This document shows positions 16,989-20,468 of a DNA stretch of 64,000 bases, one piece after another. The stretch is from NCBI GenBank assembly GCA_944324425.1, contig CALUWE010000006.1:39071-103070 (forward strand). Reading direction: 5' to 3'. Both the position numbers and the translations under genes were made by a program. A model generated the notes under the pieces. That model saw only the letters and a list, made by a program, of their open reading frames with translations, made no database searches and was not told the origin of the DNA. The first letter of the stretch is position 1. Each line of letters starts with the position of its first letter. The stretch comes from Candidatus Gastranaerophilales bacterium (GTDB lineage Bacteria > Cyanobacteriota > Vampirovibrionia > Gastranaerophilales > Gastranaerophilaceae).

Positions 16989-19900
16989 TTGGAAATATTC
17001 CCGTTTTTTAACAATAAAAATATTCATGGCAATAAAAATGAAGGATATTTACCGCAAAAGTGGAAATACCCCAATTTGGCACCCTTAAAAAAAGATGAAG
17101 TTACATTCAGAGGCAAAAAAGAATTAACTGAAGCAGACATCAAAGAAAAATTTCCGTACGTCATTTTAAATGAATTTAATATTCCGCTTGCAAAAAGAAT
17201 TTTGGCCGATGAAAGGTTATACAAAAACCCTGATTTTATGGCATTTGCGGATGAAATAGTTCACACAACGGACACAGAAGAAAAAGCCCAAATTCAAAAC
17301 GATTTATTCGACAAAGTTTTATCGGATGAAAACTTATACGATAATTTAGAATTTATGCAAGCCTTCGGCGAAATTGCGGCAAACACAAAAACAGCCGACC
17401 AAAAAGAAATCGCTGACTTTTTCTTATCCGATTCATCTCTTTTTAGCAGCCAAAGCGCCGTAAACTGTCTAAAAAAAGCCATAGGAAGTATTAGAACAAA
17501 AGAACAAAAAGAAACCGCAAAAAAAGTATTCTCTGAAAAAAAACTGAACAGTAACCCTAATTTTATGGAATATGCGGGGGATATCATCCGCTTTACCAGA
17601 AACAAAAGAAAAAAAGAAATGGCGGATTTTATTCTTGCGGATGAAAGATTGCTCAATAATCCCGAATTTATGAAATATGCGGCAGGAATTATTTTGAATA
17701 CCGAAAACGATGAGCAAAAAGATTTAAGACTGGATATTTTAAACAGAGCAATGTCGGATGAAAGCTTATCAAAAAGCAAACCCCTGTCAGATTATTTGGG
17801 AAGTATTTTGTTCAGACTGGAAAATCAGGAACAAAAAGAAGTGGCGGATAAAATATTATCCAATAAAAAACTTTACGACAACCCGAACTTTATGCCCCAT
17901 AGCACAGGTTTAGTTTACAGAACAAAAACACCCAAGCAAAAATTCCTTGCACTCAGCTTTTTATCGGATGAGAGAATTTACGACAATCCCGATTTTATTA
18001 AAAAAGCAAGCGGAATTATTAAAAACACAAAAGGCGAAGGCGTTGCAAGCATTAAATTAAACGTAATGAACCAAACCCTATCGGATGAAGCACTCTTAAA
18101 CGATTCCGAATATATGAAGTGCTTAGGAACAATTTTATCCAAAATTCAAAGCAGAAACCAAGGATACAATGTTTTAAACCTTTTGTGCAATTATAAAAAA
18201 ATAGGCTTTACACCAAATCAAATTCCTGTTTTAATTTCCGATGAAAACGGAGCAATGTTTTCAAAAATTCAACAATTAAACCAAAGAATAGGTGTTGATA
18301 ATGCAAGTAAATTAACAGTTCCGGATACGGAGCTTGCGGTAAATTTTCTCGGCTTTGAAGGCAAAAAAGATACAAATGAATTTTCAATTTACGGAAAAAG
18401 AATACTTTTAAGACGGCTTATTTCCGCAAATGCCGATTTATTCAATCAAAGCGACAATTTTAAAAGCATTTTTCCGCTTTTACCAAAAAATCAGGAAGAA
18501 TACTGCGCTCTTTTGCCTGCAATTGTAAGTTCACTGGGTATTGAAACAAAACCTTTAACAATTAAAGAAAAAGAAGAATTCAACAGACAGCTGCATACTT
18601 TATCAGACAGCCTAAAGAAATTATCCGATAATGAATTTAACGCTATAAAAGTTTATCAAACATACGGAAGAAACAAATTTATTTGCGATGTAATTAAAAA
18701 GACGGAAAAATTAAGTAAACAAGAAAGACAAAAAGTATTCGATTATTTCGGCTTTGAAATAACAGGTAACGAGAAAGCTCCCTATGGATATACAATTAAC
18801 GGATACCCTGCCAATCCGTCAGATAACAAAAAACTTGCAAAAATTAAAGACTCAAACACAAGAGCAGCAATTGAAAGTTTAAGAGAAAACGTTATTCAAT
18901 TTACCGAAGAAAACACGGTTAAATGCACAAATAAAGAAATTGAAGCCGCCTTGAATGCAATAGTTAAATATTTGCCTGAAATAAGAACACAAATATCAAA
19001 AATTCAAGCCGGCAATCAAGGAACCTACACAAACGGCTCTCATGATTTTGATGTAATGAAACACTCGCTTAAAGTTATACAAAAGATGTCGCAGGATAAA
19101 AACTTTAACGCACTAAGCGAAAAAGACAAACAAATAATGCTTCTTGCAGGCTTAACACATGATATAAGAAAGCAAGAAGGCTATGTAGACAGAGCTCACC
19201 CGAGCGAAAGCGCATTTGATACATTCTTCATCGCTAAAAAATTCAATTTGTCGCAAGATGAAGAAATTAAACTGTACACAATTATCAAACACCATGAATG
19301 GCTGCCTTTTATAAATAAATCGCAAAACGAAGAACAATTAAAGGAAAGATACAAATCAACCGCATACGATCTAAGATATGACAATGTGCTTGATTTATTA
19401 AACATTTTTACCCATGCAGACCTTAGAGCAGTCAAAAACAATGATTCGTTCCATGATTCAAAATACGGCTCCTCCAAAGTGGACATTTACGGAAACATTA
19501 GAAGCTACGGCGAATCTTGCGATTACTACACGGCAAAACTAAAAACATATATAAAAGAACTTCAAAAATCACAGCCGGTTTTGCCTGTTACAAAAATTCC
19601 GAATTCGGATACAATTAAAAACAATTTGCACATCAATCCAAAAGATGGCACCACGGATGTTAAGGGCGTTTATGTTGATAAAGACGGGCTTGTAATAATA
19701 AAATTCAACGAGGTTGAAGACTTTGAAAAAATAGGCTTTGAAAAAGGCTCAATATCAAAAGGAATAAAAGGAAATCTGTATGACGGAAGCCGATATAATA
19801 CCGGAAATATAAAATTTCTTGTTCACGGACTTGATTATGAAAGCCAGTTATCAAAATTCGATGCTTTTTCTTTAATAGATTCAGATGCGCTCTTATCCGT

Positions 19901-20468
19901 AAGCTACGCAGAGCGCCCCGAATCAAAATACAGGTTCTTCAGACCACAAGGCGTTATTTTGGATGTTAATACAGAATATATCCATGGCGGCGGCAACACG
20001 GATGCAGGCTCCGGCTGCAAGAAAGATATAGACCTTTTCAAAAAAGATTATATCTTTGGCGGCGAAAGAGAAGCCGACAGATTGTATATTTCAAATTTAA
20101 TTAAAGAAGCAGCCGGGCTAAGCGATGATGAATATATTCAATTTGTAAAACAAAATGAAAACAAATCATTTATGGAAATTGAACCTGAAGAATTGAGGGA
20201 AAAGATAATAAAGGCTTTTGCCGCAATTAATTCAAACTCAAGAACCGGCAACAGAGAATATAATGAAATGTATATTTCAAACCCAAAACCCCCAATGGCG
20301 GTTTTTGCTTACGGATTATGCGAAGGCAAAAGAATTGATAACCCGATTGAATTTTTAAACAGCGATAAAAATGAAACCGAAGATAGCGGCCCTGTCAAGG
20401 AAAGAACAGGCTTTTTGAGAAAATATGCACTTGAGCACAATGTGCCTTTTATAATATTTGGCCCATAA
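16989..20468 (+). CDS. giant HD-domain protein (1159 aa) with an N-terminal 9-unit helical repeat array, paralogue of 5729..9511
   Basis: HD motifs DVMKHSL, LTHDIRKQEG, IKHHEW and THADL (about nt 19040-19440). The C-terminal module is co-linear with the first giant protein. TTG start supported by the SD. Confidence 0.85.
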   Translation: MEIFPFFNNKNIHGNKNEGYLPQKWKYPNLAPLKKDEVTFRGKKELTEADIKEKFPYVILNEFNIPLAKRILADERLYKNPDFMAFADEIVHTTDTEEKAQIQNDLFDKVLSDENLYDNLEFMQAFGEIAANTKTADQKEIADFFLSDSSLFSSQSAVNCLKKAIGSIRTKEQKETAKKVFSEKKLNSNPNFMEYAGDIIRFTRNKRKKEMADFILADERLLNNPEFMKYAAGIILNTENDEQKDLRLDILNRAMSDESLSKSKPLSDYLGSILFRLENQEQKEVADKILSNKKLYDNPNFMPHSTGLVYRTKTPKQKFLALSFLSDERIYDNPDFIKKASGIIKNTKGEGVASIKLNVMNQTLSDEALLNDSEYMKCLGTILSKIQSRNQGYNVLNLLCNYKKIGFTPNQIPVLISDENGAMFSKIQQLNQRIGVDNASKLTVPDTELAVNFLGFEGKKDTNEFSIYGKRILLRRLISANADLFNQSDNFKSIFPLLPKNQEEYCALLPAIVSSLGIETKPLTIKEKEEFNRQLHTLSDSLKKLSDNEFNAIKVYQTYGRNKFICDVIKKTEKLSKQERQKVFDYFGFEITGNEKAPYGYTINGYPANPSDNKKLAKIKDSNTRAAIESLRENVIQFTEENTVKCTNKEIEAALNAIVKYLPEIRTQISKIQAGNQGTYTNGSHDFDVMKHSLKVIQKMSQDKNFNALSEKDKQIMLLAGLTHDIRKQEGYVDRAHPSESAFDTFFIAKKFNLSQDEEIKLYTIIKHHEWLPFINKSQNEEQLKERYKSTAYDLRYDNVLDLLNIFTHADLRAVKNNDSFHDSKYGSSKVDIYGNIRSYGESCDYYTAKLKTYIKELQKSQPVLPVTKIPNSDTIKNNLHINPKDGTTDVKGVYVDKDGLVIIKFNEVEDFEKIGFEKGSISKGIKGNLYDGSRYNTGNIKFLVHGLDYESQLSKFDAFSLIDSDALLSVSYAERPESKYRFFRPQGVILDVNTEYIHGGGNTDAGSGCKKDIDLFKKDYIFGGEREADRLYISNLIKEAAGLSDDEYIQFVKQNENKSFMEIEPEELREKIIKAFAAINSNSRTGNREYNEMYISNPKPPMAVFAYGLCEGKRIDNPIEFLNSDKNETEDSGPVKERTGFLRKYALEHNVPFIIFGP
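17202..18185 (+). repeat. nine tandem ~30-40-aa protein repeats (L[SA]DE.LY.NP.FM...I...T...QK...)
   Basis: Units begin near aa 72, 111, 146, 184, 216, 255, 293, 325 and 364 of the ORF. The DNA copies are diverged, so the array is old and was not duplicated recently. Confidence 0.8.

Follow-up and report, generated by a model that had tools for sequence, protein, structure and literature searches.

A family of giant HD-domain proteins in Gastranaerophilales with a constant C-terminal cassette and variable N-terminal repeats

Here we present a giant HD-domain protein of 1159 amino acids (aa), encoded at 16989..20468 (+) of a 64,000-nucleotide stretch of DNA from Candidatus Gastranaerophilales bacterium (GenBank assembly GCA_944324425.1, contig CALUWE010000006.1), the whole of which is referred to below as the window. 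In our reading, to which we give a probability of about 0.5, its gene belongs, as one of several paralogues, to a multi-copy family of modular proteins, giant and soluble, detected by our scans in Gastranaerophilales only, in which a targeted HD phosphodiesterase cassette is combined with a new companion domain. Comparison of relatives revealed a cassette of ~760 aa (aa ~400-1159) in almost all of 150 or more representatives, preceded by a region that ranges from 63 to 2233 aa and varies in the number and type of its repeats, so that some members scarcely exceed the cassette. HD proteins are well known; what is new, judged against the libraries and literature that were searched, is the architecture, the size of the expansion, the Gastranaerophilales-only occurrence in the scans that were run, an unclassified C-terminal domain and a leader motif.

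Background

The Gastranaerophilales are common, uncultured gut bacteria, non-photosynthetic relatives of the cyanobacteria, and their biology has been deduced almost wholly from genomes. As the present family accounts for 5-7 genes of a small genome, each encoding a protein of 1-3 kaa (thousand amino acids), and no other lineage was found to have it, its part in the lifestyle of these bacteria is probably a central one; candidate roles are interaction with the host, with competitors or with phages, or a private signalling network. Literature searches combining Gastranaerophilales with HD domains or secretion systems returned nothing on this family, and in public databases its members are labelled, where named, 'HD domain-containing protein' or 'hypothetical protein'.

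Results and discussion

Domain order and constancy of the cassette

The 1159-aa protein is composed, in order, of a degenerate leader, nine ~36-aa repeats, a middle domain, an HD domain and a C-terminal domain. When it was aligned with eight homologues of 38-51% identity, one of them titled 'HD domain-containing protein [Candidatus Gastranaerophilales bacterium]', conservation was seen to rise toward the C-terminus. Identity to the orthologues was 18-34% in the repeats (17199..18185, aa 71-399), 39-47% in the middle domain (18186..18953, aa 400-655), 48-63% in the HD domain (18954..19478, aa 656-830) and 55-69% in the C-terminal domain (19584..20465, aa 866-1159; all features on the + strand), which is the most conserved part of the protein and is called the C-domain below.

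A profile built from the C-domain matched 612 representatives of 50% identity clusters at E<=1e-3, with 308 at E<=1e-30. The proteins span 0.7-3.0 kaa (150 listed representatives), and the C-domain ends no more than 6 residues from the C-terminus in all 149 listed full-length matches, and exactly at it in 139. The HD motif lies ~430 aa from the protein end in nearly all listed representatives. A second profile, covering aa 400-860, matched 155 of 161 family proteins, mostly from profile positions 1-20, and the constant cassette therefore measures ~760 aa. The cassette thus takes in the middle domain, which was delimited by this profile and by orthologue conservation and has no Pfam or NCBIfam match. 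The modular design that a preliminary description of the gene had proposed, a variable scaffold joined to a constant enzymatic cassette, is borne out by these relatives; rather than a fixed N-terminal half within a conserved cytoplasmic housekeeping family, the comparison revealed a multi-copy family confined, in our scans, to one lineage. Among the largest members, of 2-2.7 kaa, P0022, P0030, P0042 and P0150 start with MGFNDFW... and carry an EF-hand-like motif, FDAYDANGDGTLE; they make up an N-terminal class without the leader described below.

The window contains a second family member, a paralogue of 1260 aa encoded at 5729..9511 (+), which has the same HD domain and C-domain behind a different N-terminal region of ~700 aa. 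The preliminary description had taken the catalytic half to be common to the two proteins, and this holds: BLASTP aligned them at 28% identity over aa 523-825 of the 1159-aa protein, and homology of the C-domains is visible at the profile level only (P0011, identical to the paralogue, matched the C-domain profile at E 2.4e-79). The paralogue belongs to its own, more distant subfamily, P0011-P0016, in which the cassette is kept from about aa 520 on.

A locus scan of one genome per GTDB species yielded 52 loci, almost all of them in metagenome-assembled genomes (MAGs) assigned to Gastranaerophilales, Melainabacteria or 'Vampirovibrio' from human, ruminant, rabbit and bird guts. Family genes were also observed in MAGs labelled Muribaculaceae, Clostridium or Bacteroides (L017, L031, L039, L052, L016 and P0092). 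Because the distribution is otherwise exclusively Gastranaerophilales, we regard these contigs as probably mis-binned or mislabelled. A red-deer MAG contained at least 7 copies, and a MAG of Avigastranaerophilus at least 5. Tandem family genes were observed at three loci (L026:3427-7014 and 7007-10324; L037:1-1908 and 1960-5979; L043:3817-6915 and 6940-9156), and the family has therefore grown at least partly by local duplication.

The HD domain

Matches to Pfam HD, TIGR01693 and HDIG identify aa 656-830 as a divergent HDIG/GlnD-type HD metal-dependent phosphohydrolase domain. The ligand pattern, which the preliminary description had called intact, is indeed present (H692, H724-D725, H768/H769 and D811) and is invariant in 9 orthologues, except that H692 is replaced by Q in one. 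All nine orthologues matched Pfam HD (PF01966) at E<=0.1 (best E 1.4e-4), the paralogue scored 21.9 bits, and a precomputed PF01966 match exists on one family fragment. Eight of the nine orthologues matched the TIGR01693 GlnD model, at positions ~403-563 only and with a best E of 2.6e-9; five matched HDIG and four the CCA-enzyme model (TIGR02692). With the uridylyl-removing HD domain of GlnD as its nearest NCBIfam relative, together with HDIG and the CCA-enzyme HD domain, the domain is, by its sequence, of the HDIG type, and the whole protein is not GlnD.

The likeness to GlnD consists of the H...HD...H...D ligands and the HDIxK motif, and a lead-in motif, LPEI...IGK.Q...H.FDV.KHSL, presumably resembles that of GlnD. 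The two also differ: the giant HD-domain proteins score 22-36 bits against a cut-off of 519, only the HD segment aligns, the nucleotidyltransferase (NTase) and ACT domains of GlnD are not detected, and size, architecture and distribution are wholly different. A GlnD-like NTase in the middle domain was considered and rejected, the NCBIfam matches ending at the HD segment. Class II CCA-adding enzymes are also akin, in that four of the nine orthologues match TIGR02692 weakly across the junction into the HD domain, but the NTase head domain of these enzymes is undetected here and the scores are far under the cut-off. In these enzymes the HD domain acts on nucleotides both as a phosphodiesterase and as a phosphatase.

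These relationships bear on whether the protein could be a cytoplasmic signalling enzyme, a GlnD-like eraser or a writer plus eraser, in which the HD domain would break down a second messenger or take off a mark, nucleotidyl or phosphoryl, that the C-domain would install or sense, and the repeats would form a sensor or docking platform that wires paralogues to different partners. We hold this to be unlikely, even though the HD domains nearest to this one are those of GlnD, where it removes uridylyl groups, and of CCA-adding enzymes, the protein is soluble without an export signal, the gene is stable within the species, its context is one of housekeeping genes (rlmD, mtaB and ybaK are nearby) and a histidine kinase gene lies beside the paralogue. 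Neither NTase, ACT nor other signalling domains were detected, 5-7 copies of 1-3 kaa proteins in a genome of ~2 Mb would be unusual for a regulator, and a conserved N-terminal leader would be left unexplained.

The HD domain also raises the prospect of an anti-phage or conflict protein whose repeats would sense the invader and whose effector would be the HD domain, a nuclease on the pattern of Cas3 HD and further HD-containing defence proteins. Repeats joined to an enzyme in a multi-copy, fast-evolving family are typical of conflict systems, PADLOC gave weak Cas3-HD matches (E 0.0014-0.02), and one IMG/VR contig contains a 3' fragment of a family gene. The idea is nonetheless quite improbable: neither PADLOC nor PHROGs returned anything past generic HD similarity, no NTPase (nucleoside triphosphatase) or STAND module was found, the gene lies outside any defence island, no partner genes recur, and tblastn with the C-domain had no match in 50,697 phage genomes.

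The IMG/VR contig, UViG_3300011989_000363 (L054), is classed as viral. Of the family gene it retains no more than the last 418 codons (1223-2479), which start inside the HD domain after unrelated sequence. The ~4.3 kb that follow the fragment (3158-7473) contain no open reading frame (ORF) of at least 100 aa in genetic code 11. The contig may be chimeric, the gene may have been interrupted by an insertion, or the contig may come from a phage that is recoded.

The C-domain

Conservation and AlphaFold2 models delimit the C-domain as an alpha/beta domain of ~300 aa with a four-helix insertion. In a set of 149 representatives, G916, H946, L969-S970, S972, G988, G1007-[ST]-G1009, K1012, R1031, Y1049, N1092-E1093 and P1099 are invariant or nearly so, and this group of residues (H, SxS, G[ST]GxxK, R, Y, NE) looks like a catalytic or phosphate-binding site. 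A model from a 14-sequence alignment was mediocre (predicted local distance difference test score, pLDDT, of 76), and one from a 52-sequence alignment reached pLDDT 91.6 and a predicted template modelling score (pTM) of 0.91. In the latter model an N-terminal beta-hairpin region is followed by the strand KFLVH946, two helices and the strands LSVSYA, QGVIL and IHGG; then come the G[ST]GxxK loop, the four-helix insertion (aa 1014-1078), NE1093, the strands MYI and AVFA, a helix and the last strand, FII.

No relative of this domain was found by sequence or by structure. Foldseek searches of the PDB with the pLDDT 91.6 model gave a best E of 0.14 and query TM-scores of at most 0.16 among the 50 matches listed, and the pLDDT 76 model had no match in BFVD. 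There was no recurrent or credible Pfam match, no PDB sequence match, profile search included, and no PADLOC or PHROGs match. Strongly conserved, confidently modelled and without a relative found by either route, the predicted domain may well represent an enzyme fold or activity that is new.

A P-loop or ABC ATPase was considered for the C-domain and rejected: ABC proteins recur among the Foldseek matches at probabilities of at most 0.18 and TM-scores of ~0.1, and the motif G[ST]GxxK differs from Walker A, GxxxxGK[ST].

A more specific proposal is that the C-domain is an ADP-ribosyltransferase (ART), in which case HD and ART would form a pair like the phosphodiesterase and mono-ART pair of Legionella SidE. 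It draws on the motifs VHG, SxS and YNEMY, on the order H...SxS...NE with CteC-like spacing (the CteC residues are R65/S97/E220; PMC10810742) and a helical insertion, and on the top Foldseek match of the pLDDT 76 model, 8hte_A, 'effector mutant in complex with ubiquitin' (E 0.015, probability 0.80). That match was gone with the pLDDT 91.6 model, none of whose 50 listed PDB matches was an ART, and no confirmation was obtained that 8hte is CteC. Alignment by hhalign of the 52-sequence C-domain profile with the PARP1 catalytic domain gave a probability of 0.15%, and no ART family occurred among the Pfam matches of the C-domain. We have rejected the proposal as highly improbable.

The N-terminal repeats and variation among strains

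The repeat array noted in the preliminary description is real. A hidden Markov model (HMM) built for the repeats, with the consensus ILSDERLYxNPDFMxxAGxIVxxTxTxEQ, recognised 9 units between aa 71 and 384, 7 of them strong; the units are diverged, and no tandem repeat was found at the DNA level in the region that encodes them. Repeats of the ILSDERLY type occur in 22 other family members, with 1-17 copies detected. The array resembles scaffolds of the HEAT, ARM, TPR and Sel1 kinds in having tandem, diverged units of ~36 aa whose copy number differs between homologues; unlike those scaffolds, its repeats match no Pfam repeat family.

Fourteen strain variants of the window protein (cluster P0001 and P0254-P0267) were compared. 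The mean amino-acid difference was 3.1% in the middle domain, 2.0% in the HD domain, 0.7% in the C-domain and 0.4% in the repeats. The gene is stable within the species, and since the repeats differ by only ~0.4% among strains, the N-terminal variability lies between paralogues and species and is not the product of a rapid switching system. A recombination tract could account for the concentration of differences in the middle domain (aa 400-655), as could selection that is relaxed or diversifying there.

A leader motif and the case for export

An iterated HMM search recovered a leader motif of ~20 aa, always placed at aa ~34-65, from at least 60 of 148 representatives, spread over both subfamilies. 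Its forms are ...SLDAL.SYG[RK]A.[VI]N.SF[KR]G and, in the subfamily of the paralogue, ...SP.NP.YWQ...GISF[KG]G; examples are P0011, P0025, P0082 and P0087. The paralogue carries the variant TPVNPEYWQNRVGISFGNK at 5846-5902 of the window (aa 40-58; leader HMM E 3e-7). In the 1159-aa protein the leader region (16989..17168, +, aa 1-60) contains a degenerate motif, ...YPNLAPLKKDEVTFRG, in which a regular expression matched VTFRG at aa 38-42 (nucleotides 17100-17114). The N-termini of many members begin M-[KED]-[IF]-x. To our knowledge the leader corresponds to no described signal type, be it Sec, Tat, prepilin, double-glycine or LXG.

The leader, or one similar to it, also occurs on proteins with other C-termini. 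A 715-aa protein encoded at L045:1701-3845 (+), directly upstream of the family member at L045:3895-6936, has the leader LQTLSNYNKANISFK, repeats of its own (AEKLCFGKDEEGNALF...) and a C-terminal HEIGH zinc-metalloprotease-like motif, which weakly matches EcxA, a toxin protease (E 0.19). The leader, then, is not confined to proteins with the HD cassette. By eye, a weaker leader of the FSG type is visible in P0010 (L053:5562-8108; 848 aa), which combines ILSDERLY repeats with an unrelated C-terminal domain; the P0010 gene lies in a biotin-synthesis neighbourhood.

The leader is the best hint, though only a hint, of a sorting or export step that members of the family may have in common. From it one might construct a Gastranaerophilales-specific, leader-dependent export or sorting pathway that marks giant repeat-scaffold proteins, with a GlnD-like HD phosphodiesterase and a catalytic domain of non-PDB fold as its main payload; we regard such a pathway as a tentative and rather unlikely construction. 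A leader that acted as a sorting signal would suggest that these diderm relatives of the cyanobacteria have a route of export or targeting that is as yet undescribed.

A further idea is that the protein is an exported effector, carried by a non-Sec route that reads the leader, with repeats aimed at a molecule of the host or of a competitor; its payload would be the cassette of HD domain and C-domain. The position and spread of the leader would fit such a role, as would its appearance on the HEIGH protease-like protein and, more weakly, on P0010, and so would a lineage-specific expansion with tandem duplication and rapid N-terminal diversification. On balance we find it doubtful. No signal peptide or transmembrane segment was found in the 1159-aa protein by a simple hydropathy test, which is not a trained predictor: the maximum Kyte-Doolittle mean over 19 residues was 1.18 (0.73 for the paralogue), and the same test gave 1.77 for the signal peptide of an autotransporter encoded elsewhere in the window. 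No secretion-system, chaperone or immunity-like gene recurs at the 52 loci; the 9-10 cysteines, one of them invariant, and the balanced charge are typical of cytoplasmic proteins; the leader of the 1159-aa protein itself is degenerate; and N-terminal variation among strains is low.

Known effector families provide a further comparison. Polymorphic toxins and multi-domain secreted effectors, of which the Legionella SidE family is an example, are like the present family in being large and modular, with repeats and enzymatic modules, in having multiple divergent paralogues in a genome and in sharing an N-terminal element. In polymorphic toxins, however, a constant N-terminal trafficking region precedes a variable C-terminal toxin, whereas the polarity is reversed here, with the C-terminal 760 aa constant, and the cognate immunity gene that follows immediately downstream in those toxins has no counterpart recurring beside the 52 loci. 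Nor was a known trafficking domain, a signal peptide or a linkage to a secretion system found for the giant HD-domain protein. The analogy with secreted effectors and polymorphic toxins drawn in the preliminary description is unproven: the lack of a signal peptide and of an immunity gene and the reversed polarity argue against it, and the shared leader speaks for a common sorting or export route.

A proposed targeted cassette and the points against it

If the gene encodes a targeted phosphodiesterase cassette with a new companion domain, as we prefer to read it, the repeat scaffold would pick the partner or the cellular location, and the substrate of the cassette would be a phosphorylated one. 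The HD domain would cleave a phosphodiester bond, be it in a nucleotide or, as in GlnD, in a linkage of nucleotide and protein, and the C-domain would bind or convert that substrate or one coupled to it. The leader at its fixed position, degenerate in the 1159-aa protein, would mean that family members share a sorting or export step.

Several observations weigh against this reading. The Pfam HD score of the 1159-aa protein itself is 15.2 bits (E 0.027), against a gathering threshold of 22 bits. Its leader (...KDEVTFRG) falls under the threshold of the leader HMM and was assigned by eye. The alpha-helical nature of the repeat scaffold is presumed, as is its targeting role. For the C-domain, with no relative found, it is the pattern of conservation that suggests catalysis, and the domain may serve in binding or regulation instead. 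Finally, all-against-all clustering of the ORFs from the 52 loci and the window revealed no recurrent neighbour gene family, and so provided no functional context.

Gene start and surroundings

The ORF is intact; the TTG at 16989 is its earliest in-frame start codon, the next in-frame ATG lying ~80 codons further, and a Shine-Dalgarno-like sequence, AGGAAGGA, read directly from the DNA at 16971..16978 (+), stands 10 nucleotides upstream of it. The product given in the preliminary description is upheld by independent gene calls in other assemblies, which confirm the length of 1159 aa: the 90% identity cluster has 32 members, of which 15 are listed, one of these being 1161 aa long. One member of the cluster has exactly the sequence of the window protein; it was seen on 21 metagenome contigs of up to 248 kb. 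Less can be said for the TTGTTT-17-TAATAT promoter proposed at 16911-16939, which is uninformative in such AT-rich DNA: 37 promoter-like sites were observed, and 34 +/- 6 are expected by chance.

No terminator-like site was found between mtaB and the giant HD-domain gene, so that co-transcription with rlmD-mtaB is possible; synteny with rlmD-mtaB was seen at none of the 52 related loci. The AT-rich spacer of ~550 nucleotides that was said to follow the gene is not empty. It contains a 67-aa ORF directly 3' of the gene (20574..20777, +), which may be co-transcribed with it and is followed by a terminator-like hairpin at 20805-20831, and a 108-aa ORF (21031-21357), again followed by such a hairpin (~21363-21389). 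Neither ORF is conserved beside other family members, and a role for them as immunity or partner genes was rejected on that ground. Rfam and tRNA scans gave no match that bears on the locus.

The paralogue has, immediately on its upstream side, genes for a type II/IV secretion ATPase that contains an MshEN domain (1867-3246, -) and for the histidine kinase mentioned above (3649-5613, -). The autotransporter-like protein that served in the hydropathy test is encoded at 50781-53732 (+); this protein of 983 aa has, besides its clear signal peptide, repeats of the Chlamydia-PMP type (Pfam E 1.5e-5) and a beta-barrel-like C-terminal region.

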